In this document: positions 1 to 17,365 of the stretch, one piece after another
Layout of the letters: every line of letters starts with the position of its first letter
How positions within the stretch are numbered: position 1 is the stretch's first letter
Assembly: GCA_047617785.1 (NCBI GenBank)
Contig: JBLGBK010000002.1
Span: 32,001 to 96,000 of the forward strand
Direction: 5' to 3'
Source: Colwellia polaris
GTDB lineage: Archaea > Nanohalarchaeota > Nanosalinia > Nanosalinales > Nanosalinaceae
Length of the DNA: 64,000 nt
The notes under the pieces: model-generated
Databases searched by the model: none
What the model was told of the DNA's origin: nothing
What the model saw: only the letters and a program-made list of their open reading frames with translations
Program-made: the position numbers and the translations under genes

Positions 1-3000
1 AGCACAGTTACCGCGATCGACTTCAATGGAAATAAATATCTGACAGGGAGCAACAACGGGAGGTTGGCAACATATGACGGAACAAACTGGAATCAAATTA
101 ACCAGAATAGTATAGGAACAGTTCATTCTATCAAGTGGGGAACCATAAACGGCGACTCATTTTGGCTTGTAGGCGGATCAAACGGAAATGTTCTGAAGGT
201 GCAAGAGGACGGTACCACGACCACACTCAGCACAGGATTTGGGAACTCGGTAAGCTCAATCGGTTACTCTGGAGATAACGAAAAATTCTTGCTAGGAGAT
301 GGAAACGGCAATGTAGCAAATTACACCTCAAACGGCCTCCAACAGACAAGCCAGAACGTATTCAGCAACTCTATAAGAACAATGATGTACAACCCAGCCT
401 CATCAAGAAAGAAGATGGGAGAACCTTCAGATCTAGACAACGACGACGAAGTAGAGGTCCCTATTGTAACAGAGGGATCAGACCTGGCTCTCATACCTAG
501 CTCAGGTTCAACTAACGTAATAGACTCAAGCTACGGAAGTGCAAAGGCTTCACCTCTAGGCACTGTTGACTGGACTGGAAACCCTTCAGAGGAAATCATC
601 CATATCAACACTAACTCCGACACACTATATCTTTCAGATATCAGCGGTAACGAACAATCAATAACCGACTCAGGAGAGAACCAAGTAACCGGAATAGAAC
701 AATCAACAGGAATATCCTCAGGCTCGATGCCCCAAGGAATACCTGTCCTCCAGATAAACGGACAGAAAGTACTGAACACCGGGGGTCAACCGCTCAATCC
801 AGACAACTGGACAATGATAACCGCCAAATATGACGCCTCAACAGAGTCGGCCGAACTTTACTTCAACTCGACACTCATTGACTCAAAGACCGTCAATCTG
901 GGAACAGTAAACCCGAATTCAAAAGACTTCAAGATAGCCAACGGAAAGCTTAACGCCACCATAGACGAAGTAAGAGTCTATAACGAATCTGTGACTTCAA
1001 GCCAAATAGACCGGCTATTCTTCAACGGAACTGATGGACAGTTCGATGGTGCCTACAACTCTACTATAGTAAATCCTGAAGGAAAGAAATCCTGGAGCCA
1101 ATTTATGATAGATGCCAATGAATCACCTGGTACCTCCGTTTCAGGTACAGTCTACTCTTTAGATGATGCTAATAATATCCTGAATGCCCAATCTATTACT
1201 ATCAATGACGGTAAAACTAACTACAGTATTTCAACTCTCCCAAATTCGAAGAAAATCAAGTTCTCATTCGACGGTTACAGCTCAGATATACAGAAGACCT
1301 GGGAGATTTTTGAGACACGTATATACTATGAAGACTCTCTAAAAGCAGGTAATATCACCAGTAGTGACTACAAAAACAAGCACAAGTTTAACATCTCAGC
1401 TACAGCCCGAGAAGCTGATTCAAACAGCAATATAAACGGATGTTCTGCCTATTATACCACTGATTCTCTCGAAGGTTATTTCGCAGTAGACGGAACGACT
1501 CTAAACTTAAGCTTTGGAAACGATAACCACGTCTCCTGTAACGCAACCATTGGTCCTGATCTAACTACCGTAGGCTACGGAGGAAGTAATTCTCCTCAGG
1601 CGACATTTAAGTTCAATTTCACGGATAACGACGGTTACACTGTCGGAACCATAAACCAGACAGAAACACTTCCGAACAACCAGCCAATCATCCTGAAAAC
1701 TAACCAGGAGGGCTCCTCAACAGACCACAGCTTCAATTTCTCAGCAGTAGCGAAGGATCAAGATGGTTCAGGAGACATCACCTCTTGCACAGTATACGCA
1801 GAGGACAATGATGGAAACCAGTATACAGCAAGTAATCTCAACACCTCATATGGAACCAGCACACAGGCATCATGTAACGCAACTATTTCGAGCTCCATAA
1901 ACGGTCTGGAAGTGGGAGAAGACATTCAGATGTACGCAGATTTCACCGATGTAGCAGGTACAACCTCATCGACCGCCATCTACACGCAGTCAATCCCTAA
2001 TCACAATCCAGAAATCGAGAGCGGTCCTAATCTTGAGAAAGTTTCAGGAGAACATGCCTTCAGCGTCTCAGCTGTAGCTTCGGACACTGATTCTGGAAGT
2101 TCTGAAATCAACTCATGCACAGTATACGCAGAAGATGGAGACGGAAACACCAAGGTTTTCTCAGGTTCAGGCCTTGTAGATCAAAGCTACGGAACAACAG
2201 ACCAGGCAAGCTGCAATACCTCCATAAGTAATTCTATAGAGAACTTCACTGTAGGGGAATCTATCACTGTTGACGTCAGCTTCTCTGATAAGCACGGAGC
2301 ACAGACAACAAACAACACTGGTACGAAAACAATACCTAACACGGCTCCAAGCAAACCCACAAACCTAAACATGACATACTTCCTACAAAACAACGCAGAT
2401 ATAAACCACGTAATAGACCACACACCAAAGATAAACTGGACCAATCCAACAGACCCAGAAGGAGACGCTATTACGATTAAAGCCTATACCGAGTCTTCAG
2501 CTAATCCTAACCAGCTGGACAACCAAACTAATTCAAGTTCAAGGCTAACTCTCGGGCAGAACATAGGTCTTAACGATGGAACCAGCTACAATGTAAGCCT
2601 TAGAGCATGCGATCCTTACAGCTGCAGCAACTACACCAACAACACAGAATTCACAATGAATGAAGAACCTTCTATCGAATCAGTAAGTCTGAATTACTCA
2701 AGCGTGACGGGAAGCGACTCTGTCAAACTGCAGGCAAACATTACCGACACAGACGATATTGACTCGGCGAACTACACATTATACAACCAGAGCTCGGGCG
2801 ACTTGATATATTCCAACAGTGAAGGGACTCTATCAGACCAGCTCTGGAACTCTGACTCCTTCGAAGTGCTCGCAGGAAACACTTACAACTGGACATTAAA
2901 GACCTCAGACGGATACCAAACAAGTAGCACAACAGGAACTTTCAGCGTATCAAACAGTCCTCCAGAAATACTTGAACCTCTTAATACTAGTGAATACTCC

Positions 3001-6000
3001 AATGCACATAAATTCAACGTATCAGCAGTAGCCTACGAACCTGATGGAGAAGTAAATATCAACAAATTCAACATAACACTTAATGATGGAGACGGAAACC
3101 AAGTCACATTCACAGAAAACGTGACAAAAAGCTACGGAAACAGTAGCGAAGTTGCAGCAAACTTCTCAAACGTAAACAGCTCGATTACCAGTGGATTTGA
3201 AATAAACGAAGAAATCAGCGTATCTATCAAATTCATCGACAAAGGTGGTAAAACAGCCTCGACCTCCGGAAACCAGAGAATACCGAACCAAGTTCCCGAG
3301 GTACCTCAGAACTTAAACATGACATACTTCCTACAAAACAACGCAGATATAAACCACGTAATAGACCACACACCAAAGATAAACTGGACTAATCCAACAG
3401 ACCCCGAGAATGATTCCGTAACCATCAAGGCTTATACAGGTCAGTCATCCCGCCCTACATCACCAGACAACAGCCTGAACCTGGGAAGCAACTACAGCAA
3501 CTCAGCAAGTCTAGACTTAGGTAACAGTGTAAGTCTAAGTGATGGAACCAGCTACAATGTAACTTTGATCGCATGTGATGATTACGGATGCAGCTCCAGA
3601 TCTGAAAATATAGAGTTCCACATGAACGAGGAACCAAACATAGAGAATACAGCACTCAACGACTCAAGCCCAACAGGAAGCGACTTCGTCAAACTACTAT
3701 CAAATGTGACAGATAACGAAGATTCAATTTCAGATGTTGCGTTTACGGTCTGGAATACAGATTCGAACAACAAAATAATTTCAAAGGAGCAGGGAGAGAA
3801 AATTGAGGGAGAATGGAATTCAAAAGAGTTTGAAGTCTTCGCATCCACCTCTTACAACTGGACAGTCAACGCAACAGACGGATACCAATACACTCTAGAC
3901 ACCGGAACCTTCAATGTCCCGAACAGCGGGCCTTCGATGGTATCAGGACCAAGCTTCCAGGACTATCAAGAAGGGCATAAATTCAACGTATCAGCAGTCG
4001 CAAAAGACGTTGACGGACAGGAAAACCTCGCCAACTACACAATACAGCTGGACGACGGAGAACAAACATATGAATATACAAAAGACGTGACCAGAAACTT
4101 TGGTAGCTCCAATGAGGTCGCAGCAAACTTCTCAAACGTAAACACCTCAATAGAAGGATTTGAAGTTGGAGAAACAATCTTCGTAACCTTAATATTCCGA
4201 GATAAATCTGGAGAAACCGCACAGAACTTTGAAAGTAATACTATACCCAACCATAAGCCCTCTTCAGCCTCAGAAATCAACATGGTAGAGCTACTAGAGC
4301 CGGGTACAGATCTACAGCACGTGATCGATCAGCAGCCAGAGATAAAATTTACAGCGCCCTCAGACCCTGACAAAGATAATATCACCTTCAGCATCTTCAC
4401 CGAATCCTCCTCTAACCCCTCACAACTAGACCGAGAAGTACTGATAACAGAAAATAACTACAGTAAAAGCCAGGAGATCGAGATAGGAAACCAGGTAAAC
4501 CTCAACGATGGAATTAGCTACAACTTCTCAGTTCAGGCCTGCGATCAATTCGGAAGCTGCACAACGAAAAGAAACATACAGGAGTTCCACACAAATCAGG
4601 AACCAACATTCAACTCTGTGGAGCTCAACAAATCAAGTTCAAATCTTGCAGATGGCGATAAAGTCCATCTTAAAGCCAATATTTCAGATGCAGAATCAGA
4701 TAGTATCGACTGGGCAAACTTCACAGTATACAATCAGACTGACAACGACAGACTAATCGACTCACTTAATGGATCAATAAACCAGAACGGAACCTGGATA
4801 TCAGATACATGGACCGTATCCACAGGAACGACCTACAACTGGACAGTCAACGCAACAGACGGATATGAAACCTCAGATACCTCAGGAACCTTCAAAACAA
4901 ACAATTCAAACCCCGAGATAGTTTCAGGACCAAGCTTCGATAATCTAGAAGGTAGACATGCCTTCGATGTGTCCGCAGTGGTCAGCGACGCAGACGGAGA
5001 AACAGATCTTGCAGATTATACGCTCATCCTAGAAGACGGAGACGGGAACCAGAAAACAATCGAGAAATCCATAACCAACACCGGTTATGGAAACTCAAAC
5101 GAAGCCACAATAAATTATTCAAGCGTGAACACTTCGATAAGCAACTTCCAAGTCAACGATGAGATACAGGCCACAATCACGGTAAGAGATACCTCAGGGG
5201 CTTCAGCCCAGACGCCGACAGAATCAAATACGATACCTAACACAGCTCCAAGCAAACCCACAAACCTAAACATGACATACTTCCTACAAAACAACGCAGA
5301 TATAAACCACGTAATAGATCAAACTCCGGAGATAAACTGGACTAATCCAACAGACCCCGAGAATGATTCCGTAACCATCAAGGCTTACACAGGACCTTCT
5401 CTGACGCCCACAAATCTCGACAACAGCATCTCAGGAGACAACAAGCTTTCGCTTGGACAAGAAGTCGAGATATTGGATGGGGATACCTACAATGTAAGAC
5501 TTCAGGCATGCGACCCCTACGAATGCAGCAGCTATACCAGCAATATCGAGTTCACAATGAACCAGGAACCTTTCATTGAAAGCGTGAAAGCTAACACCTC
5601 TCAAATAACTGGTTCAGACCAGATAAAGCTCGAAGCGAATATAACAGACAATCAAGACAGCATCAAGTGGGCAAACTTCACAGTATACAATCAGACTTCA
5701 GGAGAACTACTATTCCAGAACAAGAAAGGAACTCTAAACTCCGAACTCTGGACCTCAGAATCTTGGGAGACAAGATCTGACACGACCTACAACTGGACAG
5801 TCAACGCAACAGACGGATATCAGACAACCTATACTACCGGAACAATCACAGTAAACAACCAGCAACCAGACATAACAGATCTTTCCACAGAAAATTACCA
5901 AAATGGTCACAAGTTTAACATCTCAGCTACAGCAACAGATGCAGACGGTGCGATAAACATAGATCAATTCAATATAACATTAAGTGACGGAGACGGAAAC

Positions 6001-9000
6001 CACGAGGATATAAGGGCCTCAGTAAACCGCGACTTCGGAACTGAAAATCAGGCCGCACTCAATTACTCCAATATCAACGCTTCATACTTCCCTGACTTCG
6101 AAGTCGAGGAGACTCTCAGCATAGATGTAGAGGTTATCGACAGATCAGGAAGCTCATCAACATCATCTACAGAGAGCGCAATACCTAACCACGCGCCTAA
6201 CCTACCACAGAACCTTGAACTTGAAGTCGGAAACAAGAATTACGTGGTAAACCACAGCTTCAAGATCAATTGGACCGCACCCTCCGACAGCGATAACGAC
6301 AACCTCACAGTAAGGGCACACCTTGGAACCGATCAAGACCCGCTCACAGTAGAAAACAGCACCTCAATTACGCCGGGTAACTATGGAGAGGTAGACGAAC
6401 TTATCCTAGGAGGTAACAATGTTAATCTCCAGGACAACCAGGATTACAATATAGATCTGGTTGCGTGCGATAATTGGAGCTGTACATCTAGAGACACGAA
6501 TGCATCATTCCACATGAACCAAGAACCAAGGGTAGAATCAGTAAGACTCAATGAATCAGTAACAGAAGAAGCAGAATGGATCAAACTAATAGCGAATGTA
6601 ACACCAACAGACAATCCTATAAACGCAGCATTCTACGAAATCTGGAATCAGAGCTCACCACAACAACTTGTAGATGAAAAAATAGGATCAAGCGATGGAA
6701 AAACTTGGAATTCATCTAATTTCTACGGTAAATCGCTGCAGACCTACAACTGGACTTTCACAGCGAGCGACAGCTACGAAAACACAACATTAATGGACGT
6801 ATTCGACGTAGGGAACGCAGATCCAGAAATAACGAGAAGCATACAAACCTCAGACTTGAGCGATGAACACGGCTTCAATATCTCTATGAAAGTGAGAGAC
6901 CTAAACGGAGACAACGATCTCGCCAACTACACAGTAATAGCAGATGATGGAAACGGCAATACTCACCGCTACAAAGGAACATTCGCAGAAAATGGAGACG
7001 AATATGCATGGGCTAATTATTCGAACATAAACTCGAGTATTCCAGATTTTGAAGTAGGAGAAACGATATCTGTACAGATAATCGCAAGAGACCAGCATAA
7101 TCTGAAAGCATATTCTTCAACAGTATCGAACACAATACCTAATAGACAGCCTGTAATAACAGATATCAAACTGAAACCAGATAATCCTACGACAGAAGAC
7201 ACCCTGAACATCACCTATAAGGCCGAGGATCCAGAAAACGACACAATTACCAACAGCTTCTACGAATGGACCTCCAACTCATCCACCGTGTCCTCAAAGA
7301 TAGTCTCACCGACAGAAACTTCAAAAGACCAGCACTGGAATCTGAGTCTTCAGATAGTAGACGAGTACAACACATTAAGCCAAGAAAACACTTCACAGGA
7401 AACACTTGTAATCCAGAACTCTCCACCAGAAATCGCAAGAGCTCAAGAAGTAGAAAATGTAAGCAGAGAACATGCATACACAGTTTCAGCAATAGTTCAG
7501 GATCCAAATGGGGAAACAGACCTCGATGCCAACTGCGAAGTAACCGTAGAACATGAGACAAACAGCACAACAGCAACAAAGGCTATAGATACATCTTACT
7601 CCGGATCAGAAAAAGCCAAATGCGCCTACACAGTAAGCGCAGAAGATAAAAGCTGGATAAAACCAGGAGAAAAAGTAAACACAACCTTCAAGTTCACCGA
7701 TCAGAGCTCAGGAACTACAAGCACCAGTAAGAAGTCTGCAGAAGTTCCTAACAGAAAACCAAAAGTAACAGAACTAACAGCGCCATCTAACAACTCAGAA
7801 ACCAACAAGACAGAACTCAAATTTGATTGGAAAGCTCAGGACCCTGAGAAAGACAACCTAGAATACAAACTGAAAATATTCAATGAAACAGAAAATATAA
7901 TTACAGAAAAAGGTCTCACAAAGTCAGAAAAAGCTATTAGCAGCCTTCAGAGCTCAAATATAAAATGGCAGGTCACAGCCACAGATATCTACGGTGGGGA
8001 AACACTTTCATCTAGCACCTCCGAAAACTCAACAGTAGTTGTAGACTCAAAAGCTCCAGAAATTGTTGAAGGTCCAGCCATAGAGGTTATAAACTCTTCC
8101 AGAGATTACCCGCAACAAAATCAATCTGTAAAATGCTACTCGCGATGGCAGGACAACTTTGAACTAGGTAGCGCAAAAATATACGAAAACGCTACAGAGA
8201 CCAACCACACCATAACATCTAGCGACTTCAGTTCAGGATGGGCGAACGTAACAATCGCTGCAGGAGATCTAGAGGCCGGCAAGATAAGCTGCACCACCTA
8301 TGCTTCAGATCATCTCGACAATAAAGCATCAGACAGCAACACCTTCGAGGTAGAGGACATAGAGAAACCAAATATGACCGACTTCGATTACAGCCCTAAG
8401 ACTCCTGAAAAACTCGACCCCCAGAACCCTGTGGAAGTCAGCGCAAAGATAACCGACAACCTGAAGATAGAAAATGTTTCTCTTCTCTACCGTAAAGAAA
8501 ACGAGGAGAGCTGGAACTACGGCAACATAACGAATTCTGGAGATCTCTACACAGGAAACTTCACTCCTCAAACAGATAGTGCGACATACGACTTCAGACT
8601 CAAAGCTGTTGATACATATAATAACACCGAGGTTAGGAAAGCCTCCGTTAATGTAAGCTGGGATTATACCTGGAGCGGCTCACCTTCCGAATACAGCGGT
8701 TCAAGCACACTACAGGATAATTTAGTTGATTATACGCCGATAAAGATAGAGAATACTGGCGATTTCCCTCTCAAATACAACATAACTGCCGATACCGAAT
8801 CTAACCTGAACCTTAATATAGGAGATAGAGAATTTATCATCCCCTCCTCCGAATCAAAATCAATAAGTGTTGAAGCAAGTTTAGAAGAGAACAACGCTGA
8901 TGACGAAGGTATATACTCCTTCGATATAACTGTAAACTCTGAAAACACAACTGCTAACCCTTCACAGGGAACTATAGAAAGTCAGGCAACTTTCACTCTA

Positions 9001-10722
9001 GATGCCCCGTTCCTATCAATGGAGAAAGCTTCAAAATTCCCACTATCAGCATCGCAGGGAACAACAGGCGTTGAACTTCCTGTAGATACCACCAACGTAG
9101 GTACACAGTCAGCAGAAGGAGGCAGCATAAGCTACGAAATCCCAACCTCCTGGGAATTAAGCAGCGGAAACCTCAACCAAGAACTTGGAGATATGAATGT
9201 TGACGAGACAGAAACCTCGAGCATCAGTGTCAACATACCCGGAGATACTTCTACAGGAACTAAACAAATAAACATGACTGCAACCACCACAAACAGAACC
9301 TTTAGTCAAAGCTTCCAGATAGATATCACAGAGAATGAGACAACCACAATTGTCGAAGACGGTGGTGGAGGAGGCTTCGGAGGAGGTTCCGGCCCGACTT
9401 CACAAGAACAGGTTGAACAACGTTCAGATCAGATTTTCAACACCAGCGAAAGCTTTGAAATTGTAAGAGGAGAAGACCAGAACTTCACAGTTCGTTTCCA
9501 GAACCCTACAAAATTCAACCTCACCAATATAACCGCAAACGTTGAGGGAATCCAGTCTCAATACCTCCAACTAGAAAACCCATATCTTGGAAGAGTGAAT
9601 ATAAACGAATCAAAGAACATCACCGTGAAGATAACCGCCCCAGAATACTTCCAAACCGGCAATTACAACTTGAATTTCAACATCACCGGAAAAGGCATCG
9701 ACGGACAAGGCGCATTTGCAGACCATTTCGGTTTCACACTGAACAAGGATATATCTCTCGGAGTAAGAGCTATTCCACGACAGAATGCCTCCACCTACCT
9801 TAATGAAACCAAAGAAATTCTCAATCAGATGAATAGAAGCAACCTAAGAACAAGCGAGATTGAAGAGCTTATCAGCGAGGCAGAGAACAATATCGAATCC
9901 GGAAACTATGCAGAAGTGCAGAAAAGCTATCAAGAAGCACAGTCAAGATACCAGACTGCCCAAGAAACACGCCAAGGCCTGACAGAGCTTGAAAGCCAGA
10001 TTAATTCAGCTGAAGCATCAGGACTCGATGTCGGACGCGCTCGACAGGTCGCAAGCCTAGCAGAGGCAGCCATGGAAAGAGGTGCGTACACAACAGCTGC
10101 CGATAGGCTGGAGGAAGCTCAGAACATCTACCAGTTGGAGACTGCGGGAGAAGTTAACTGGATCTATGAGATCCGGTCCAATTGGAAGAAGATACTATCC
10201 GGACTAATCATAATAGGAATAGCCGGATTCTTGGCGCGACTAAGGTATCGACTCTACAGAATCAGAAGCAGACTGAAAGATCTCAAGTCAAAGGAGAAGA
10301 ACATAGAAGACCTCAAAATACAGAAACAGAAGAAAGCATTCGAAGAGAAAGATATCTCGCTTTCAGAATACGAGGATAGCATAGAGGACTACAACAACCA
10401 GATTATCGAAATAATCGAAGAACGTGTCGCATTACAGGCGGAAGAAGCTAATATAAGCAACTTCAAGAGACGCAACAGCCTAGCGCAGGAGAGAGATCGT
10501 CTCAACGAACTTATCAGAGAGACACAACAAGACTATATCAAAGGAAATATCAGCGACACAGACGTATATGAGAAGAAAGTTGAAGAGTTAACCGGCCGGC
10601 TTTCAGAGATTGAAGGAGAAATAGCGGAGATAGATGCAGAGGCAGAAGTAAGATCAGAGAGCCGCCTAGGTCGGATAATGGAGAAAATACCGATAATTTC
10701 AACAGGAGGTAAAGTGCAGTGA
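1..10722 (+). CDS. Giant membrane-anchored surface (adhesin-like) protein, 5'-truncated by the window edge; propeller-like repeats, LamG-like segment, many Ig/FN3-like repeats, Gly linker, coiled coil, one TM helix, cytoplasmic helical tail
   Basis: Frame is open from base 1 (STVTAIDFNGNKYLTGSNNGRL...), so the TTG at 64 is not the true start. LamG-like motif WTMITAKYD...IDEVRVYN (~750-1025), ~320-aa repeating units, abundant N-x-S/T sequons, GGGGGFGGGSG at ~9361-9393, hydrophobic ILSGLIIIGIAGFLA at ~10192-10236 followed by basic residues. Confidence 0.85.
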   Translation, partial: STVTAIDFNGNKYLTGSNNGRLATYDGTNWNQINQNSIGTVHSIKWGTINGDSFWLVGGSNGNVLKVQEDGTTTTLSTGFGNSVSSIGYSGDNEKFLLGDGNGNVANYTSNGLQQTSQNVFSNSIRTMMYNPASSRKKMGEPSDLDNDDEVEVPIVTEGSDLALIPSSGSTNVIDSSYGSAKASPLGTVDWTGNPSEEIIHINTNSDTLYLSDISGNEQSITDSGENQVTGIEQSTGISSGSMPQGIPVLQINGQKVLNTGGQPLNPDNWTMITAKYDASTESAELYFNSTLIDSKTVNLGTVNPNSKDFKIANGKLNATIDEVRVYNESVTSSQIDRLFFNGTDGQFDGAYNSTIVNPEGKKSWSQFMIDANESPGTSVSGTVYSLDDANNILNAQSITINDGKTNYSISTLPNSKKIKFSFDGYSSDIQKTWEIFETRIYYEDSLKAGNITSSDYKNKHKFNISATAREADSNSNINGCSAYYTTDSLEGYFAVDGTTLNLSFGNDNHVSCNATIGPDLTTVGYGGSNSPQATFKFNFTDNDGYTVGTINQTETLPNNQPIILKTNQEGSSTDHSFNFSAVAKDQDGSGDITSCTVYAEDNDGNQYTASNLNTSYGTSTQASCNATISSSINGLEVGEDIQMYADFTDVAGTTSSTAIYTQSIPNHNPEIESGPNLEKVSGEHAFSVSAVASDTDSGSSEINSCTVYAEDGDGNTKVFSGSGLVDQSYGTTDQASCNTSISNSIENFTVGESITVDVSFSDKHGAQTTNNTGTKTIPNTAPSKPTNLNMTYFLQNNADINHVIDHTPKINWTNPTDPEGDAITIKAYTESSANPNQLDNQTNSSSRLTLGQNIGLNDGTSYNVSLRACDPYSCSNYTNNTEFTMNEEPSIESVSLNYSSVTGSDSVKLQANITDTDDIDSANYTLYNQSSGDLIYSNSEGTLSDQLWNSDSFEVLAGNTYNWTLKTSDGYQTSSTTGTFSVSNSPPEILEPLNTSEYSNAHKFNVSAVAYEPDGEVNINKFNITLNDGDGNQVTFTENVTKSYGNSSEVAANFSNVNSSITSGFEINEEISVSIKFIDKGGKTASTSGNQRIPNQVPEVPQNLNMTYFLQNNADINHVIDHTPKINWTNPTDPENDSVTIKAYTGQSSRPTSPDNSLNLGSNYSNSASLDLGNSVSLSDGTSYNVTLIACDDYGCSSRSENIEFHMNEEPNIENTALNDSSPTGSDFVKLLSNVTDNEDSISDVAFTVWNTDSNNKIISKEQGEKIEGEWNSKEFEVFASTSYNWTVNATDGYQYTLDTGTFNVPNSGPSMVSGPSFQDYQEGHKFNVSAVAKDVDGQENLANYTIQLDDGEQTYEYTKDVTRNFGSSNEVAANFSNVNTSIEGFEVGETIFVTLIFRDKSGETAQNFESNTIPNHKPSSASEINMVELLEPGTDLQHVIDQQPEIKFTAPSDPDKDNITFSIFTESSSNPSQLDREVLITENNYSKSQEIEIGNQVNLNDGISYNFSVQACDQFGSCTTKRNIQEFHTNQEPTFNSVELNKSSSNLADGDKVHLKANISDAESDSIDWANFTVYNQTDNDRLIDSLNGSINQNGTWISDTWTVSTGTTYNWTVNATDGYETSDTSGTFKTNNSNPEIVSGPSFDNLEGRHAFDVSAVVSDADGETDLADYTLILEDGDGNQKTIEKSITNTGYGNSNEATINYSSVNTSISNFQVNDEIQATITVRDTSGASAQTPTESNTIPNTAPSKPTNLNMTYFLQNNADINHVIDQTPEINWTNPTDPENDSVTIKAYTGPSLTPTNLDNSISGDNKLSLGQEVEILDGDTYNVRLQACDPYECSSYTSNIEFTMNQEPFIESVKANTSQITGSDQIKLEANITDNQDSIKWANFTVYNQTSGELLFQNKKGTLNSELWTSESWETRSDTTYNWTVNATDGYQTTYTTGTITVNNQQPDITDLSTENYQNGHKFNISATATDADGAINIDQFNITLSDGDGNHEDIRASVNRDFGTENQAALNYSNINASYFPDFEVEETLSIDVEVIDRSGSSSTSSTESAIPNHAPNLPQNLELEVGNKNYVVNHSFKINWTAPSDSDNDNLTVRAHLGTDQDPLTVENSTSITPGNYGEVDELILGGNNVNLQDNQDYNIDLVACDNWSCTSRDTNASFHMNQEPRVESVRLNESVTEEAEWIKLIANVTPTDNPINAAFYEIWNQSSPQQLVDEKIGSSDGKTWNSSNFYGKSLQTYNWTFTASDSYENTTLMDVFDVGNADPEITRSIQTSDLSDEHGFNISMKVRDLNGDNDLANYTVIADDGNGNTHRYKGTFAENGDEYAWANYSNINSSIPDFEVGETISVQIIARDQHNLKAYSSTVSNTIPNRQPVITDIKLKPDNPTTEDTLNITYKAEDPENDTITNSFYEWTSNSSTVSSKIVSPTETSKDQHWNLSLQIVDEYNTLSQENTSQETLVIQNSPPEIARAQEVENVSREHAYTVSAIVQDPNGETDLDANCEVTVEHETNSTTATKAIDTSYSGSEKAKCAYTVSAEDKSWIKPGEKVNTTFKFTDQSSGTTSTSKKSAEVPNRKPKVTELTAPSNNSETNKTELKFDWKAQDPEKDNLEYKLKIFNETENIITEKGLTKSEKAISSLQSSNIKWQVTATDIYGGETLSSSTSENSTVVVDSKAPEIVEGPAIEVINSSRDYPQQNQSVKCYSRWQDNFELGSAKIYENATETNHTITSSDFSSGWANVTIAAGDLEAGKISCTTYASDHLDNKASDSNTFEVEDIEKPNMTDFDYSPKTPEKLDPQNPVEVSAKITDNLKIENVSLLYRKENEESWNYGNITNSGDLYTGNFTPQTDSATYDFRLKAVDTYNNTEVRKASVNVSWDYTWSGSPSEYSGSSTLQDNLVDYTPIKIENTGDFPLKYNITADTESNLNLNIGDREFIIPSSESKSISVEASLEENNADDEGIYSFDITVNSENTTANPSQGTIESQATFTLDAPFLSMEKASKFPLSASQGTTGVELPVDTTNVGTQSAEGGSISYEIPTSWELSSGNLNQELGDMNVDETETSSISVNIPGDTSTGTKQINMTATTTNRTFSQSFQIDITENETTTIVEDGGGGGFGGGSGPTSQEQVEQRSDQIFNTSESFEIVRGEDQNFTVRFQNPTKFNLTNITANVEGIQSQYLQLENPYLGRVNINESKNITVKITAPEYFQTGNYNLNFNITGKGIDGQGAFADHFGFTLNKDISLGVRAIPRQNASTYLNETKEILNQMNRSNLRTSEIEELISEAENNIESGNYAEVQKSYQEAQSRYQTAQETRQGLTELESQINSAEASGLDVGRARQVASLAEAAMERGAYTTAADRLEEAQNIYQLETAGEVNWIYEIRSNWKKILSGLIIIGIAGFLARLRYRLYRIRSRLKDLKSKEKNIEDLKIQKQKKAFEEKDISLSEYEDSIEDYNNQIIEIIEERVALQAEEANISNFKRRNSLAQERDRLNELIRETQQDYIKGNISDTDVYEKKVEELTGRLSEIEGEIAEIDAEAEVRSESRLGRIMEKIPIISTGGKVQ
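2344..5387 (+). repeat. Intragenic direct repeats with nucleotide-identical patches (three copies near 2344-2460, 3314-3434, 5245-5387)
   Basis: 76 bp identical 2366-2441/3314-3389; 74 bp identical 2344-2417/5245-5318; 57 bp identical 3378-3434/5331-5387. A separate 32-bp element occurs at 3853, 4834 and 5788. Confidence 0.9.
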
Positions 10723-12002
10723 AGAAGACAACAATTCTGCTGACACTTGTACTTTTCACAGGCTTAACAACAGCACAGTCAGCGAACGAAACACAGCAAG
10801 CACTTCAACAAGCTGAAAGCGACATCCAGTTGATGGAGGAAGAAGATATACCAACTGAACGAGTTACGAATCTCTTAGAAACAGCGAACAACTCCTATCT
10901 TGCGCAGAGAAACTTTGAGAATGAAGGAGGAACTGCAGATTACTCGCGCGTCAAGGAGCTTACCCAACAGATCAGCGATATACAGGAGAGAGCGATAAGA
11001 GTCTCCGACAGGATAAGCGCACTGGATATGAGATTGAAAGAGCTGGAAAACACAAGCGTCAACCTTTCATCAGCGGAAAACGAACTAAATGCTGCAAAAG
11101 ATGATTTCCAAAGCCAGAGATTTGAGGAGGCGGAGGGTCATGTCGAATCAGGCTATTCAGCGATATCCGAGGCACAGTCCGCACGTACACAGGTAGAGAG
11201 CTTTGCCGCAGCACAGCAGGAAGACATAGTGGCACAGATAAACATATTTATAGATTATCTGAGAGCAAATCCTACTAAAGTCGGCGGAAGCACAGCTCTC
11301 GGACTTCTAGCCATGATATCATTCTGGAAGGAGTTCAACACATATCGACTGATTAAACGAAGAAAGCGGAAAACCGTCAAAGAAGAAGTTCTGGAGCGTT
11401 TGATTACAGACAGCCAAAAAGAGTACTACATGCGGAAAGAAGGCTCACCTATACAGTTCAACACCAAGATGAACCGATTCGAGGATCTACGGAGAAACGT
11501 AGTCGAAGATATCGAAATAATAGATGGTAAACTGGAGAACCGGCACTCTCTACTCTTTGATCCGGAAGAACCTACGCAGGAAGAAGTCGAAATTGATGAA
11601 ACAATAGAAGAATCGGCAGAAACTGAAAAAGAAGAACAAGTGAAGAAAGAACAGGAGCAGCAAAAGCCCGTAGAAGTAATTGATACCGAAGACGAAACTG
11701 AAGATCAAACCGAGGAGGTCAGCGAAAGCAGCAAAAATGAAGAACAGGAAGAAGCTGAAGACACACAGGATATGGATAACGAAGAGAGTGAAGACAAGGA
11801 AGAGGAAAGTGAAGAGAACAACGAGCTAGTATGTGATGAATGTGGCGAAGAATTTGAAACAGAGCGCGGACTTAGCATCCACAGAGAAAGAACTCATGAT
11901 TCAGAGATTCAGGCCGAAGGCGTTGTATGTCCTGTATGCGGAGATGTTTTCGATACTGAAAGAGGCATGCATATCCACAGAGGAGAAGTTCACAAGGATT
12001 AG
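10719..12002 (+). CDS. Signal-peptide/coiled-coil/TM protein with acidic linker and two C-terminal C2H2 zinc fingers
   Basis: MKKTTILLTLVLFTGLTTA signal peptide; TM VGGSTALGLLAMISFW then KRRKRK; CDECGEEFETERGLSIHRERTH and CPVCGDVFDTERGMHIHRGEVH; GTGA overlap with the giant gene. Confidence 0.8.
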   Translation: MKKTTILLTLVLFTGLTTAQSANETQQALQQAESDIQLMEEEDIPTERVTNLLETANNSYLAQRNFENEGGTADYSRVKELTQQISDIQERAIRVSDRISALDMRLKELENTSVNLSSAENELNAAKDDFQSQRFEEAEGHVESGYSAISEAQSARTQVESFAAAQQEDIVAQINIFIDYLRANPTKVGGSTALGLLAMISFWKEFNTYRLIKRRKRKTVKEEVLERLITDSQKEYYMRKEGSPIQFNTKMNRFEDLRRNVVEDIEIIDGKLENRHSLLFDPEEPTQEEVEIDETIEESAETEKEEQVKKEQEQQKPVEVIDTEDETEDQTEEVSESSKNEEQEEAEDTQDMDNEESEDKEEESEENNELVCDECGEEFETERGLSIHRERTHDSEIQAEGVVCPVCGDVFDTERGMHIHRGEVHKD

Positions 12003-12994
12003 AACATTCCTCCGGAATCATCGTTTCCGCTTCCGAAGAAGTTGTCATTATGTCTGACATTTAATCCCAGTCCGCCTTCTATTGTCATTGGTGCGATCTT
12101 CTCTTCAAAGTTAGTACCACGCATCTTGTAAATCTGTATTCCGCGTGAGCTCTGCTGCTTGTACATAAGGATTACTCCATCAGCTAGGAACTCTGCATGG
12201 CCTGTTTCAGTAATCTGATCCGGTATAGTCTGAGATTCAGCAATTACAAAGGATGTAACACCAATATCGCGGAAGAGATCGAACAGTTCTCTAACATATA
12301 GCCTGTAGTTCTTGGACTTTTCTGAAAAGCCTGCTGAGATAGCTGATAGTGAGTCAACGATTACACGGTCGAAGGATTCTTCATCCTCATCTAGATCGCC
12401 AAACATCAGCGGTTTAGTATCGATTTCGAGCTCTCCGCTCTGTTTCTTGAACAACGCTTCTACTGTACGGGATACGTCGAACGGGTCGTACGTTTCAATT
12501 ACTAAATTGCCGTCATCAACGTGCTTCTGCCCGTCCCAGCCGAAGTCTTCCATGTGGCTAATTAAAGCGTCTGGCGATTCCTCGAAGCTCATGAATAGTA
12601 CTTTTTCGCCGTTTTCAGCAGCATGGTTGGCCATATGAAGGTTGAATATTGATTTACCCGATCCTGGGTTTCCTGCGATTAATGTAACGTTCCGCTTTCT
12701 TATTCCATCGCCGAAGAGATTATCGATTCCGTTTATACCTGTACGGAGATAGTTTTCTTTCTTGCCTGCTGATATTCCGTCGTCATCTTCCTCGGATGAG
12801 TTATCGCTTCCGTCGTCGTTGTTGAATTCTGACCATGGGTTCTCATCTTCAGAATCACTATCAACTTCTGAGTCTTCCTGCCATTCTCCGACTCTGTTCG
12901 GGTTAATATCTTCGTGTTTTGCGGAGACATGGGCTTTCAATGCTTTCAAAGTTGGAAAGTCATGGCCACATTTCTTACACTCCATGGTGTTCAT
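11999..12994 (-). CDS. Single-domain KaiC-like (RAD55/GvpD family) RecA-superfamily ATPase with N-terminal C2H2 zinc finger
   Basis: LRTGINGID, Walker A GNPGSGKS, catalytic SFEES, Walker B RVIVDS, EFLADGVI, KMRGT; N-terminal CKKCGHDFPTLKALKAHVSAKH. Confidence 0.88.
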   Translation of the reverse strand: MNTMECKKCGHDFPTLKALKAHVSAKHEDINPNRVGEWQEDSEVDSDSEDENPWSEFNNDDGSDNSSEEDDDGISAGKKENYLRTGINGIDNLFGDGIRKRNVTLIAGNPGSGKSIFNLHMANHAAENGEKVLFMSFEESPDALISHMEDFGWDGQKHVDDGNLVIETYDPFDVSRTVEALFKKQSGELEIDTKPLMFGDLDEDEESFDRVIVDSLSAISAGFSEKSKNYRLYVRELFDLFRDIGVTSFVIAESQTIPDQITETGHAEFLADGVILMYKQQSSRGIQIYKMRGTNFEEKIAPMTIEGGLGLNVRHNDNFFGSGNDDSGGMF

Positions 12995-13101
12995 GATACA
13001 AATGCACCTGTTTCAAACTTAAAGTTTTCTTAAAACGGTTCAACAGCGCTTGAAACCAGAAAATTTAATAACAAGGAACTTACTGACTTCGTTATAGAAA
13101 C

Positions 13102-13656
13102 ATGGAATTTCCTGAAGAACTTGAAGAACTGGAAAGGGGAAAACCAGTATTTGTATCAACAGAGTCTCCTGATCTACGAGAACTTGTAAACACGCTTATA
13201 GAGAAAATTACAGAGGATGAAAAGCTTGTAGTGTATATAGGAAGTATTAAAACCAGTAAGAAAGTCAAAAGCATGCTGAAAGAAAGAGATATAGACCTGA
13301 AGAAGATTCTATTCTTCGACATGGCAACAAAGGTTACAGGCTCAGCTCCTGACGACGTGGAAAACACTGTATTCTTCGACCCTGAAGATATCAACCAGGT
13401 TAACATGCAACTCGACGACGCGGTAGACGCAGTACCAGAAGACCGAGAAGCCGTGATAGTATTCGACACAATATCAACACTGTCAATATACAACGATAAA
13501 GAAGTAATAATCAAGTTCTTGAAAAGCCTGAGTTCAAAGATGGATAACTGGGACGTATCCTCAGTTCTACTCGGAGTAGAGAGCGAAATGAGCGACGAAC
13601 TTACGGAGGCTGTGGAAGATTCTGTTGAAGAAACAATCGATGCAACCAGCGAATAG
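13102..13656 (+). CDS. Inactive RecA/KaiC-fold protein (DUF835-like)
   Basis: Retains ILFFDM and Walker-B-like AVIVFDTISTLSIYN, ends VEETID, lacks a Walker A; divergent from the KaiC-like gene. Confidence 0.65.
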   Translation: MEFPEELEELERGKPVFVSTESPDLRELVNTLIEKITEDEKLVVYIGSIKTSKKVKSMLKERDIDLKKILFFDMATKVTGSAPDDVENTVFFDPEDINQVNMQLDDAVDAVPEDREAVIVFDTISTLSIYNDKEVIIKFLKSLSSKMDNWDVSSVLLGVESEMSDELTEAVEDSVEETIDATSE

Positions 13657-13699: not shown

Positions 13700-16600
13700 G
13701 TGAAAGTAGAAAACCTAGACCTACCTTCCAAGATAAAGGAAGACTACATAGATTCTGGCATAACTGAACTCAACCCTCCGCAGGAAAAGGCCGTAGACGC
13801 AGGGCTACTGGAAAATCAGGACATGATAGTTGCAGCGCCGACAGCATCCGGAAAGACATTTATCGCCGAGCTAGCAATGGTTGAGCAGGTTATCAAACAG
13901 AATAAAACAGCCGTCTACATCGTCCCACTGAAAGCACTTGCTTCCGAGAAGTATGAAGACTTCAAGGAAAGATACAGCAATCAAGAAGTCAAAATCTCAG
14001 TAGGAGACATGGACGACGAAGGAGAATACCTAGATACAGCAGATATCGTAGTAACCACTTCTGAAAAACTTGACTCAATGCTGAGACACAACCCTTCCTG
14101 GATCCACAACATCGGGCTAGTAGTAATCGACGAAATACATCTACTGACCTCACAGAACCGAGGTCCAACGCTCGAAGTAACAATAACGCGCCTACGAGAA
14201 CTTCTGGAATTCCAACTGCTTGGGCTCTCTGCCACCATATCAAATTCTGACGAACTTGCAAAATGGCTGAACGCAGAGCTAGTAGAGTCGGACTACCGAC
14301 CTGTAGAGCTGGAAGAAGCAGTATACGAAGGAAACGAACTCGAGTTCTACGACGAAGATGGCGGAGAGAAAGAGGTTTCCGATAGCTCTGATGAAAAGAT
14401 CGGAGCAGAAAAAAACGGAGACAGCGATATCAACTCCGCATTCCAGACCGGAACTGAAATGGCAGAAGAAGACGATGAAGAACGGTACGAACCTGTCAGA
14501 ACACAAGATATCCCGGATAAGCACAACAGCAAAGTTCAGAACATCCTGGCAGATACTTTAGAACAGGATAAACAGGGGATTGTATTCTGCTCCTCGCGTA
14601 AAGGCGCCGAAAAAAGCTCAGACCGCGTAGCTAAAGTAACAGAAGAGGATCTAACACGAGAGGAAAAAAGCAAATTAGACGAGTATGCAGAGATAATTGA
14701 AAACGTGCTTGGTTCTCCTACAGAACAATGCAAGCGATTAGCAGAGAACGTACGTAAAGGCTCAGCGTTCCACCACGCCGGACTTGTAAACCGCCAGCGA
14801 CAGGTGGTGGAGGAGGCATTCCGTGAAGGCTATATAAAATCTGTCTGCGCCACACCAACTCTCGCAGCCGGAGTAAACCTTCCCGCATTCAGAGTTATAA
14901 TACGCGACTTGAAGCGTTACACTGGCAACGGAATGGAGTTCATACCTGTCCTTGAATACGAGCAGATGTGTTTGCCGTATGATCAGAAAATCGTTTTGAG
15001 TGACGGTGAGAGGAGGAAAATTGGAGATATTGTTGAAGAGGAACAGGAGTTAGAGATTTTATCTTCTAATGATGGCGAAATTGAGTCCAAGAATATCACT
15101 GATTTCTTTTGTAGAGAAGCCGAGTTTTTGGAGATTAAGACGGAGACCGGCAGTGTAGAGGTTACCGAGAATCATCCTGTAAAGACTGACGAAGATTGGA
15201 AAGATGCTGGAGAACTGGAGGAAGGAGATAACTTGAAGCTGCTTCCAGATACCGTTAATTCAAGAAATCCTTTCTTCTTCGAACTGATGCCTGAAGAAGC
15301 CTATGTTAAAGATGCAGGAGGCATAATCGAAAAGTTCAAGAAGGAATTCGAGTTGACTGATGCAGAGGTTGCGGAAAAACTTGGCATCAGCAAATCAACC
15401 ATCTATCATTACAAAAAGAATAGGAAGGCCTGTCCTCTTGAAGGCGTACTGCAGGCCTGTGAAGAACTGGAGATAAGGAAATCTGAGATCGCCGATACCA
15501 TCAGCCTTGTGAAGAGCAGTTATGGGAATACTATTGATATACCAGAGAAGATTACGGAGAATTTCATGTGGCTTCTCGGGATAATTCTTACAGATGGAAA
15601 CCTGAACCGTACAGAAGACGGAAGAACAGGAAGCACTCACACAGCTATCCGTGTCTTCAACACTAATGAAGAGATTATAGAGAAAGCCAAATCAGCTTTC
15701 CGTGCTCTGGGACTTGAATGCTACGAAGAGGAAAGGGAAGAAGGAAAGTACAGGCTTGAAGTCGGGAACACCTTGCTCGCTCAGGTCATGAATGAAGTGT
15801 TCGATATACCTTACGGAGCAAAGTCCCAAGACACGAAGATTCCTGAGATAATCTTCAGCTTAAACGGTAATTTACAGGCAAGCTTCATAGAGGGACTTTT
15901 CGATGGAGATGGCTCATATTATGAAAATCAAGAGGAATACAAGCGTAGAATACATTTCTCCAGCTCCAGCGAGAAGTTTACAGAAGACCTACAGGAACTT
16001 CTGGCAGCTCACGGGGTAAAGTCCAGAATAGACTCTAAATTTGTAGAAAAAGTGGATTTCGGCGATGAAGAGTACGAAGTCAACAAAACCAGCTACTCGC
16101 TCAAAATCAGAAACAAAGACAGCGTTAACATACTGGCAGACTTGATTAACCCAGTAAAAGCAATTATAGAGCGGGAAGAATACAGCTCTTATCATAATTC
16201 AAACAATCACAGAAAAAAGGCTAAAGAACACACAGAAGTGCTGGAAATCCAGGAAAAAGGCAAAGAGAAAGTATATAATATCGAAGTAGAAGACAACCAC
16301 AACTACATAACCAGCAACAGAACATTGCTCCACAACTGCGGAAGAGCTGGAAGACCGAAATACGACGATAAAGGGGAAGCGATATCAATAGCAAAGAATC
16401 CTGGTATGACTTCTGAAATCGTCGACAGATATATTGCTGGCGAACCTGAGAGAATTCAGTCTAAGCTGGCTGTTGAACCGGTTCTAAGGATGCATACGCT
16501 GGCTTTGATCGCCTCCAATTTCTGTAATACGCATAAGGAGCTGCAGGATTTCTATAAGAAGACTTTCTACGCTCATCAGTACAGTGATATCGGTTCTGTG

Positions 16601-17365
16601 GAGCAGAAGATCAGCAAGGTAGTTGATCAGCTGAGAGAGTACGAGTTCCTGAAGGAGGAAAAGTTCGAGGCTACACCTCTCGGAAGACGTGTATCGGAGC
16701 TGTACATCGACCCTGATTCTGCTAACCTGATACTTGAATCGCTGGAGAAGGCTGAGGAGAAAAGTACGAAGCCGATATCCTACCTATTCATGATGTGTCA
16801 TACCAGCGAGCTGCAGCCTCGATTAAATGTGAACGCGAAAGAGGAGAGCGACTACGCTAAGGCTCTGGATGATGCAGAAGAGTATATTCTTGAGCAGGTA
16901 CCGAACGAATGGGATGTCGAGTATGAGATGTTCCTTGAAGTGATGAAGACTGCGATGATGTTGAACGCCTGGATTGATGAAAGCGATGAGCAGGAGATTG
17001 TGGATCGCTTCAACACGGCGCCGGGCGGCATCAGAGCGAAAGTCAGTAACGCCGACTGGTTGCTGTATGCCTCTAAGGAGTTAGCAAACATGAAGGAGCT
17101 GGAAACAGGTGAGATCGAGAAGCTTCGGGTACGTCTCAAGCACGGAATCAAAGAAGAACTTCTTTCACTTGTTCAATACGACCAGATCGGAAGAGTTAGA
17201 GCCCGAAAACTGCATGACTACGGCATTCGTGACGCCGAGAATATTCGAGAAACTGATTTCGAGAAGCTGAAGAAGTTGATCGGCGAGAAAACGGCACGTA
17301 AACTGAAGAAACAGGTAGGTCAGGAAAACATCTTCGATCGCGAAAACATCATGGATTATTTCTAG
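13700..17365 (+). CDS. hel308: Hel308/Hjm Ski2-like DNA helicase (intein-containing)
   Basis: APTASGKT, VPLKALA, DEIH, LSAT, FHHAGL, TPTLAAGVNLPA, split motif VI QM|CGRAGRP, C-terminal HhH IGRVRARKL. Confidence 0.95.
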   Translation: MKVENLDLPSKIKEDYIDSGITELNPPQEKAVDAGLLENQDMIVAAPTASGKTFIAELAMVEQVIKQNKTAVYIVPLKALASEKYEDFKERYSNQEVKISVGDMDDEGEYLDTADIVVTTSEKLDSMLRHNPSWIHNIGLVVIDEIHLLTSQNRGPTLEVTITRLRELLEFQLLGLSATISNSDELAKWLNAELVESDYRPVELEEAVYEGNELEFYDEDGGEKEVSDSSDEKIGAEKNGDSDINSAFQTGTEMAEEDDEERYEPVRTQDIPDKHNSKVQNILADTLEQDKQGIVFCSSRKGAEKSSDRVAKVTEEDLTREEKSKLDEYAEIIENVLGSPTEQCKRLAENVRKGSAFHHAGLVNRQRQVVEEAFREGYIKSVCATPTLAAGVNLPAFRVIIRDLKRYTGNGMEFIPVLEYEQMCLPYDQKIVLSDGERRKIGDIVEEEQELEILSSNDGEIESKNITDFFCREAEFLEIKTETGSVEVTENHPVKTDEDWKDAGELEEGDNLKLLPDTVNSRNPFFFELMPEEAYVKDAGGIIEKFKKEFELTDAEVAEKLGISKSTIYHYKKNRKACPLEGVLQACEELEIRKSEIADTISLVKSSYGNTIDIPEKITENFMWLLGIILTDGNLNRTEDGRTGSTHTAIRVFNTNEEIIEKAKSAFRALGLECYEEEREEGKYRLEVGNTLLAQVMNEVFDIPYGAKSQDTKIPEIIFSLNGNLQASFIEGLFDGDGSYYENQEEYKRRIHFSSSSEKFTEDLQELLAAHGVKSRIDSKFVEKVDFGDEEYEVNKTSYSLKIRNKDSVNILADLINPVKAIIEREEYSSYHNSNNHRKKAKEHTEVLEIQEKGKEKVYNIEVEDNHNYITSNRTLLHNCGRAGRPKYDDKGEAISIAKNPGMTSEIVDRYIAGEPERIQSKLAVEPVLRMHTLALIASNFCNTHKELQDFYKKTFYAHQYSDIGSVEQKISKVVDQLREYEFLKEEKFEATPLGRRVSELYIDPDSANLILESLEKAEEKSTKPISYLFMMCHTSELQPRLNVNAKEESDYAKALDDAEEYILEQVPNEWDVEYEMFLEVMKTAMMLNAWIDESDEQEIVDRFNTAPGGIRAKVSNADWLLYASKELANMKELETGEIEKLRVRLKHGIKEELLSLVQYDQIGRVRARKLHDYGIRDAENIRETDFEKLKKLIGEKTARKLKKQVGQENIFDRENIMDYF
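14969..16336 (+). mobile_element. Intein (456 aa) with HTH and LAGLIDADG homing endonuclease, inserted in helicase motif VI
   Basis: Starts CLPYDQKI, block B VTENHPV, LAGLIDADG motifs WLLGIILTDG and FIEGLFDGDG, block F VYNIEVEDNHNY, ends LLHN before extein Cys. Confidence 0.95.

Follow-up and report, generated by a model that had tools for sequence, protein, structure and literature searches.

The subject of this analysis is a four-gene locus in contig 2 of the genome of a nanohaloarchaeon, a tiny halophilic symbiont (G000, 787 kb in 22 contigs), read in a window of 64,000 nucleotides (G000:C2:32001-96000), the whole stretch of DNA that was analysed. Close homologues are labelled Candidatus Nanohaloarchaea and Candidatus Nanohalobium; the orthologues with the label Candidatus Nanohalobium sp. 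share about 70% identity. The locus encodes a giant surface protein, a small membrane protein termed the partner, a KaiC-like ATPase (P0002) and a predicted KaiC-fold protein (P0003); their coordinates are collected in table 1. The genes are closely packed. The end of the giant gene (10722) and the start of the partner gene (10719) overlap by 4 bp, the partner end (12002) and the end of the minus-strand KaiC gene (11999) form a convergent 4-bp overlap (TTAG), and the starts of the KaiC gene (12994) and the P0003 gene (13102) diverge from a spacing of 107 bp. A first-pass annotation of this DNA had described exactly this packing, and the gene coordinates bear it out. It had also pointed to C2H2 zinc fingers of one pattern, C-x2-C-G-x2-F-x-T-x6-H-x4-H, on acidic linkers. 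All three fingers, two on the partner and one on the ATPase, match the pattern, and both linkers are rich in aspartate and glutamate (D/E; table 1), the mean across this genome's open reading frames (ORFs) of at least 200 amino acids (aa) being 17.8%. A/T-rich boxes seen by eye in the divergent gap are candidate archaeal TATA elements.

Table 1. Features of the locus. Positions are those of the window unless a contig is named; TM, transmembrane.
Feature	Position	Strand	Remarks
Giant surface protein	1..10722	+	Full gene G000:C2:30534-42722, 4062 aa; begins 1467 nt ahead of the window
Anchor module of the giant	9775..10467	+	Helical juxtamembrane ectodomain, one TM helix, conserved cytoplasmic coil; homologous to partner core
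Cytoplasmic coiled-coil tail of the giant	continues past anchor module to 10719	+	
Membrane partner	10719..12002	+	427 aa, GTG start
Acidic linker of the partner	11565..11825	+	Residues 283-369, 49% D/E
Two C2H2 zinc fingers of the partner	11832..11993	+	Residues 372-393 and 404-425; zf-C2H2_4 27.9 bits vs cut-off 27
Single-domain KaiC-like ATPase (P0002)	11999..12994	-	331 aa
KaiC domain of P0002	12053-12745	-	Residues 84-314
Acidic linker of P0002	12755-12913	-	Residues 28-80, 53 aa, 40% D/E
N-terminal C2H2 finger of P0002	12914..12979	-	Residues 6-27
Divergent intergenic gap, KaiC/P0003	12995..13101	.	107 bp
P0003, inactive KaiC-fold protein (iKaiC-like)	13102..13656	+	184 aa, no phosphate-binding loop (P-loop)

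The giant and the partner share a membrane anchor. The giant begins with a signal peptide, carries 139 N-x-S/T sequons and includes an FG-GAP-like repeat, an NPCBM_assoc/Ig-like domain and a series of five to seven super-repeats, each about 320 aa in length; its C-terminal region consists of one TM helix and, on the cytoplasmic side, a conserved coiled coil that extends over about 230 aa. Also headed by a signal peptide, the partner continues with an all-helical ectodomain, a TM helix near residues 187-207 and a conserved cytoplasmic helical hairpin that runs to about residue 273, C-terminal to which lie the 87-aa acidic linker and the two fingers. Its GTG start is backed by orthologue alignment, and its AlphaFold2 (AF2) model has a predicted local distance difference test score (pLDDT) of 90.8. 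Alignment by hhalign of a partner profile (A1, from eight partner orthologues) with a profile of the giant anchor (A3, from five giant C-termini) gave a probability of 98.8% and an E-value of 7.5e-17 over 231 columns, pairing stalk with stalk, TM helix with TM helix and cytoplasmic coil with coil. BLASTP of the partner against the giant C-terminus found no match; the relation is visible only by profile-profile comparison. Run against the 4294 ORFs (at least 40 aa) of this genome, the partner hidden Markov model (HMM) matches only the partner and the giant, the A1 match in the latter covering residues 3749-3962 (E 6.8e-9). By these profiles, the partner and the giant's own membrane anchor are paralogues.

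A tree of 23 partner-type and 18 giant-type anchors, typed by the higher-scoring HMM, contains one branch that splits the two types (99/96), and the subtrees on either side branch similarly; two contigs of the same-genus relative G001, ORFs with E > 1e-10 and partial domains were omitted. This topology supports a reading of the partner and giant anchors as ancient, co-diverging paralogues. The family is large: in a set of 1.84 billion representatives, the partner profile matches 1394 clusters at E <= 1e-3, and the number at E <= 1e-30 is still 296. Most of these are stand-alone proteins, 270-330 aa in length, while in some the match forms the C-terminal end of a longer protein (1200-3500 aa). 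Yet it has no Pfam model, and neither Pfam nor the ESM Atlas gives it a name. For 26 of 28 longer partner-family proteins, the cytoplasmic extension gives no Pfam domain, and none of the 28 is fused to KaiC. With the partner model as query, Foldseek returned no match at E <= 0.001, and VIA-align only helical-hairpin and bundle rows with Z of 9-11, below the bar for helical proteins.

P0002 matches the Pfam KaiC family (PF06745) with 142.7 bits against a cut-off of 26.6 (E 1.6e-41). Its motifs are a Walker A sequence GNPGSGKS at residue 108, FEES at 137 and a Walker B sequence VIVDS at 211; Walker A, the EE pair and Walker B are kept in 20, 20 and 18 of 20 aligned subfamily members, respectively. 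Searched against the PDB, the subfamily profile retrieves as its best matches KaiC (E 1e-81) and three archaeal proteins of a single domain, PH0186, PH0284 and SSO2452. P0002 is a KaiC-family ATPase of a single domain with its motifs in place, and is predicted to be catalytically intact. Two narrower identities were considered and rejected. Against the KaiC of the circadian clock proper stand its single domain, in place of the tandem CI and CII, in 331 aa and a circ_KaiC (TIGR02655) score of 67 bits against a cut-off of 546. The archaellum protein ArlH scores 38 bits against an NCBIfam cut-off of 215, and the locus has no arl genes. A complex prediction of the KaiC core (residues 75-331) with the cytoplasmic part of the partner (205-300) scored 0.01 against a mark of 0.32, which is uninformative either way.

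P0003 had been called an inactive KaiC-fold protein at first pass, and this holds on its predicted KaiC/RecA fold and the lack of a P-loop (GxxxxGK[ST]), which occurs in none of the 11 members of its family. Its own Pfam matches fall below cut-off: a weak match to KaiC, DUF835 at 22.9 against 33.1 and DUF7504 at 23.3 against 27. Across the family, matches at E <= 0.01 are obtained for KaiC in 10 of 11 members, for DUF7504 in eight (best 2.4e-16) and for DUF835 in six. Direct sequence comparison with the KaiC subfamily is weak (hhalign probability 9.4%, E 0.0034), and a PDB sequence search reaches FlaH at only E 0.067, so that the fold match is needed. The AF2 model (pLDDT 85.3, pTM 0.83) has as its top Foldseek matches FlaH (E 7.5e-7), PH0250, PH0284 (TM-scores 0.70-0.73), SSO2452 and KaiC. 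On this model, P0003 is a predicted P-loop-less protein of the KaiC/RecA fold.

Conservation within the order was followed in 40 relatives with profile and orthologue queries from this locus. A full-length orthologue of the finger-bearing KaiC occurs in seven (G001, G002, G008, G024, G026, G039 and G025). The partner core is found in the same seven; of two further relatives, G037 has a decayed and G040 a divergent copy. The giant-type anchor is likewise present in seven (G001, G002, G008, G024, G026, G039 and G040), six of them common to the KaiC set. In 31 of the 40, these queries missed giant, partner and finger-KaiC alike. Synteny in relatives, one of the checks named by the first-pass annotation for its four genes, came out as follows: KaiC and partner are convergent neighbours in 7/7 relatives, the giant anchor adjoins the partner in six (in G039 it is on a separate contig), and P0003 lies beside KaiC in four of the seven, namely G001, G002, G024 and, with two small ORFs intervening, G008. 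In the three loci without P0003 the KaiC flank is occupied by M48/LemA, by a coiled-coil protein with PolB, or by LeuRS. Hel308 is adjacent in G001 and G002 only and lies 3.4 kb off in G008. The same-genus relative G001 holds the locus twice (L025 = G001:C3 and L026 = G001:C37), its proteins being about 80% identical to those of the window; strain variation or duplication in the assembly is the probable reason. Both G001 copies of the partner are cut to 315 aa and are fingerless. In G037, a decayed pair remains at about 6350-7150 of L036 (G037:C21), where a truncated 210-aa partner-like ORF overlaps a short remnant with no more than the finger and the start of a KaiC domain.

Beyond the order, 80 loci of the KaiC subfamily were gathered with the KaiC alignment and inspected in a 5-kb radius around KaiC. 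They are mostly DPANN and span Woese-, Pace-, Aenigmat-, Nano-, Iain- and Micrarchaeota, Hadarchaeota, Thermoplasmata and others; two are the G001 contigs. A match to the partner profile lies near KaiC in 34 loci, is adjacent in 30 and is adjacent with E <= 1e-10 in 19; any anchor match (A1 or A3) is found in 37. At E <= 1e-10, 18 loci carry a giant-type and 19 a partner-type anchor, and in the 13 with both the giant is always upstream of the partner. In the sister Aenigmatarchaeota loci L045 and L074, a single ORF comprises giant anchor, second TM helix and partner module, a predicted fusion that follows the gene order and probably reflects one event. A P0003-like gene is present in 27 loci, adjacent in 23. 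KaiC itself stands convergent after the partner, in tandem after the partner, or ahead of the giant, and this varying position speaks for selection on linkage rather than one inherited operon. Clustering of the 637 neighbour genes of the 80 loci yielded, besides the KaiC/iKaiC and anchor families, receiver (REC) proteins in 10 loci and pilin-like proteins in six; no DNA-repair family and no secretion or insertion genes recur in this set. These patterns of linkage support the view that the four genes belong together. Recurrence of the same gene set across many DPANN archaea suggests that it is probably one uncharacterized membrane-spanning machine.

The zinc fingers have a different distribution from the core genes. 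Over the 4294 ORFs of this genome, a loose C2H2 regular expression finds nine fingers in eight ORFs and the strict pattern four. The shared pattern is in essence the generic C2H2 consensus, so that its presence in both does not single out partner and KaiC as a pair. The KaiC finger alone scores 16.5 with zf-C2H2_4 (cut-off 27); by spacing (C-x2-4-C-x12-H-x3-5-H) and hydrophobic core positions, the segments on both proteins are predicted C2H2 zinc fingers. The KaiC finger is kept in all seven orthologues. The partner fingers occur within the order only in G000 and G002, that is, in this genome and one of its two same-genus relatives; the partner tail is truncated in G001, has instead a KNRKT-type motif twice over in G008 and G024, and is fingerless in G026, G039 and G025. 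In the large database, nine of the 12 close partner clusters carry a finger. Partner tails of non-halophiles are short or Lys-rich, and the N-terminal modules of KaiC relatives elsewhere are winged-helix-like domains, the KNRxT motif or Lys-rich tails. Seven of the eight C2H2 proteins of this genome are membrane proteins with the finger at a predicted cytoplasmic end: two DsbA-like thioredoxins, a tail-anchored protein of 125 aa, a two-TM protein of 140 aa, two other large surface proteins and the partner. A query with the acidic-linker-plus-finger tail finds matches in 41/41 genomes of the order, and PF13894 has 1-11 matches per genome. Such a spread over membrane proteins marks a lineage-wide class of module rather than a private docking code. 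The idea that the fingers form a matched docking pair, part of the first-pass reading, is not upheld, with partner fingers not conserved, the KaiC finger present in 7/7, and fingers on cytoplasmic ends genome- and order-wide. The two partner fingers are, as read from this distribution, a putative lineage-specific addition of the KaiC-finger module class and not a conserved docking code. We infer that fingers stand in for basic tails in the high-salt cytoplasm.

Several further observations concern these modules. The two DsbA-like thioredoxins lie outside the window (G000:C2:104515-105420 and G000:C2:114895-115728) and combine an N-terminal finger, a linker, one TM helix and a thioredoxin domain; a predicted cytoplasmic finger on an extracytoplasmic oxidoreductase is an unexplained pairing in both. 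Four more of these membrane proteins have a terminal finger with an acidic linker on the predicted cytoplasmic side (G000:C2:2-4693, G000:C7:37525-40200, G000:C2:102666-103043 and G000:C6:34821-35243), and these fingers have a common x-R-G-[LM]-x-[IV]-H core. In a Nanohalobium-like genus, partner tails (C-terminal parts of L022:9412-10794 (-) and L023:1043-2434 (+)) carry in place of fingers a repeated motif of about 30 aa of the type ALLxAExxGKNRKT, which is also found on KaiC N-termini of other acidic relatives (P0025, P0036 and L028:1271-2434 (-)). The KNRxT motif has no Pfam family, and its best PDB sequence match, the phi29 head fibre, is not significant (E 0.07). Among other KaiC N-termini, those of L065, L068 and L070, from metagenome-assembled genomes of Pace- and Woesearchaeota, are extended by about 250 aa in which a hemerythrin-like pattern of histidines is seen by eye, and those of L057, L059 and L063 have candidate DUF5752-like repeats. 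The only weak PF13894 match in G000 outside the loose regular-expression set is a soluble 465-aa protein (G000:C3:29601-30998 (-)) with a C-terminal C-x2-C...H-x3-C, primase-like by eye.

Taken together, the four genes may form one conserved membrane-spanning module, widespread in DPANN archaea, in which giant and partner serve as anchors, KaiC as a switch and P0003 as its modulator, with signals passing from outside to inside. We give this reading about an even chance of being correct. The proposed steps are as follows. (i) A homologous anchor of helical stalk, TM helix and cytoplasmic hairpin would join giant and partner in the membrane, where the two predicted anchors most likely pair into a hetero-oligomeric transmembrane unit. 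(ii) The KaiC-like ATPase would act as an ATP-dependent switch at the cytoplasmic coils of the anchor pair. (iii) P0003 would probably modulate this ATPase, by analogy to KaiC hub systems and to ArlH/ArlX. (iv) The swappable N-terminal module of the ATPase would be the output or targeting end, and would most likely bind a polyanion, for example DNA or RNA. (v) In salt-in halophiles, a folded finger would take the place that Lys-rich tails have in non-halophilic relatives. (vi) The favoured direction would be outside-in: the state of the surface protein, such as when it touches a host cell, would be passed on to the KaiC switch. REC genes in 10 of the 80 loci and winged-helix-like N-termini on KaiC relatives lend the system a flavour of signalling. 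The module proposed by the first-pass annotation stands in part: the genes are linked in the order and across phyla and the KaiC fold of P0003 is inactive, but the matched docking fingers fall away. A bolder form is a rather doubtful proposition, namely that the giant and the paralogue of its anchor are a host-contact receptor, possibly a mechanoreceptor, whose cytoplasmic coils gate a nucleic-acid-binding KaiC-type ATPase, and that in salt-in halophiles fingers on acidic linkers have replaced Lys-rich tails as polyanion-binding ends on many membrane proteins besides these.

A number of observations weigh against the modular, outside-in reading. The convergent orientation at this locus rules out co-transcription of KaiC with giant and partner. 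P0003 adjoins the finger-KaiC in only 4/7 relatives, and its nearest other relatives pair with different KaiC paralogues. In 32 of the 80 loci, some cut by contig ends, neither an A1-type anchor gene nor a P0003-like gene lies within 5 kb, so the KaiC-like ATPase works in other contexts too. An N-terminal extension is absent from 36 of the 80 KaiC relatives, which makes finger or tail non-essential to the core function, and the DNA-contact positions of the fingers (T, R/K, G/A, I/A; by eye) are atypical for sequence-specific DNA binders. Finally, the two-clade result of the anchor tree is partly circular because the type labels were assigned by the higher-scoring HMM; the labels also agree with protein size and gene order.

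Other explanations divide the same evidence differently. In an inside-out machine, the ATPase and its inactive partner would sense nothing; acting through the cytoplasmic coils of the anchors, they would put ATP into assembly, insertion, positioning, tensioning or turnover of the giant. The linkage evidence serves this explanation equally, the long conserved cytoplasmic coiled coil of the giant also speaks for it, RecA-superfamily rings are established as often performing mechanical work, and the 36 KaiC relatives noted above have no output-like module at the N-terminus. We consider it unlikely; against it, winged-helix-like fusions and REC neighbours favour regulation, secretion or insertion genes do not recur in the 80 loci, and archaeal KaiC-like proteins of a single domain whose roles are known, such as ArlH, are regulators or scaffolds, not motors. 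It is improbable to a further degree that the genes have no joint function and are passed on and lost together as a mobile or fast-evolving surface-gene island, with fingers serving as a generic cytoplasmic-end topology plug or tether that plays no part in the module. The patchy distribution, in 7/40 relatives and in two of the 21 genera of the family, would fit such an island, as would the fingers on unrelated membrane proteins and their presence in 41/41 genomes of the order; against it, the linkage outlasts repeated rearrangement across phyla, a giant-partner gene fusion exists, and G039 keeps the giant despite its location on another contig. The generic-finger part of this alternative is compatible with the modular reading.

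DNA repair is a very remote candidate. On this account the finger-KaiC and P0003 would be recombination mediators resembling RadA paralogues and acting with Hel308, and the proximity of surface genes would be incidental. Hel308 directly follows P0003 here, in G001 and in G002, SSO2452-type KaiC-like RadA paralogues are among the structural relatives, and the layout of zinc finger and RecA-like domain echoes bacterial RadA/Sms (residues 5-141 match NCBIfam sms with E 1.2e-8, a score well short of the cut-off). Hel308 is adjacent, however, in only two of seven relatives, the flanks elsewhere being those with M48/LemA, the coiled-coil protein and PolB, or LeuRS; repair families do not recur in the 80 loci whereas anchor genes do; and the KaiC score of P0002 dwarfs its RadA and RadB scores.

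Downstream of P0003 in the window (13700-17365, +), a Hel308/Ski2-type helicase of 1221 aa contains DEAD, archaeal helicase domain 4 and HhH domains and is split by an intein that carries LAGLIDADG and HTH domains. Its orthologues in G001 and G002 are 760-761 aa long and have no intein insert; that of G008, which the edge of the locus cuts off at 1198 aa, carries its insert at a different site. PADLOC gave only weak P-loop matches, and no defence system is indicated.

For DPANN archaea, which live on their hosts by attachment, this locus offers a concrete, conserved candidate for the sensing or management of host contact, namely a giant surface protein tied by a duplicated anchor to a KaiC-type switch. 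If the bolder reading above is correct, the module would represent a widespread, undescribed archaeal transmembrane signalling pathway by which DPANN symbionts detect attachment. Cytoplasmic-end C2H2 fingers throughout the order may in turn show how acidic, high-salt cytoplasms do the jobs performed by basic tails elsewhere. No paper describing the module was found; the passages of PMC9563170 that were covered, one of which mentions SPEARE giant proteins, do not describe it. Judged by title and abstract, the literature searched offered nothing relevant on C2H2 zinc fingers of Nanohaloarchaea or on archaeal C2H2 cytoplasmic tails.

It is already known that archaeal KaiC-like ATPases serve as signalling hubs together with inactivated forms of KaiC; passages of PMC5847659 that cite Makarova, Galperin and Koonin (2017) describe these hubs in general terms. 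Here, as in such hubs, a single-domain KaiC-like ATPase stands beside a P-loop-less KaiC-fold protein, with sensor or output fusions, REC neighbours and membrane components. Makarova, Galperin and Koonin (2017, mBio) reportedly describe neighbourhoods of archaeal KaiC-like signal-transduction hubs with inactivated KaiC proteins of the MEDS and DUF835 types, and their paper or its supplements may already list this neighbourhood. If a hub is taken to be a KaiC-like ATPase whose gene stands together with those of an iKaiC and of sensor or output components, the locus belongs among them: an iKaiC gene is adjacent here and in 23/80 loci, REC occurs in 10/80, and winged-helix-like fusions are found. 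Unlike in described hubs, the recurrent partners are a surface protein of giant size and a small protein paralogous to its anchor, from a family without a Pfam model, and the halophile members have C2H2 fingers on acidic linkers.

ArlH (FlaH) and ArlX are parts of the crenarchaeal archaellum motor. There, too, a single-domain KaiC-like protein at the cytoplasmic face works together with a protein that crosses the membrane once and has a coiled coil in the cytoplasm, and FlaH, with structure 4yds among the P0003 matches, is the top fold match of P0003. In contrast, this locus is without ArlI/ArlJ or pilin genes, and its membrane protein has a large ectodomain and a giant paralogue. Bacterial RadA/Sms resembles P0002 in placing an N-terminal zinc-binding element (predicted here) before a RecA-superfamily ATPase, but the P0002 finger is C2H2 and not C4, there is no Lon-like domain, the score is 34 against a cut-off of 403, and the conserved neighbours are membrane proteins, not repair genes.

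Two comparisons concern the surface proteins. SlaA and SlaB are the S-layer pair of Sulfolobales. By architecture they are like the giant and partner in that the gene of a large outer surface protein lies beside that of a small membrane-anchored protein with a helical stalk; in the present pair, unlike SlaA/SlaB, both proteins are membrane-anchored through homologous modules. Presence of the giant/partner pair in only 7/40 relatives indicates an accessory function and not a general cell wall. SPEARE proteins combine serine protease and restriction-endonuclease domains in one giant protein; Hamm et al. (2019) reportedly proposed a host-interaction role for those of Nanohaloarchaeota. The present giant, too, is a nanohaloarchaeal protein of very large size that is secreted or at the surface, but it differs in its C-terminal TM anchor and its link to KaiC. 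Its identity as a SPEARE protein was considered and rejected: Pfam finds no protease or endonuclease domain at E <= 0.01 across all 4062 aa, scanned as the last 3573 aa whole and the first 3600 aa in four 900-aa pieces, although divergent domains could escape. What this locus adds to the known systems is the predicted paralogy of the partner with the giant anchor, the co-divergence of the two anchor types together with one fusion, the size of the unnamed anchor family and, as we infer, the substitution of fingers for tails in halophiles.

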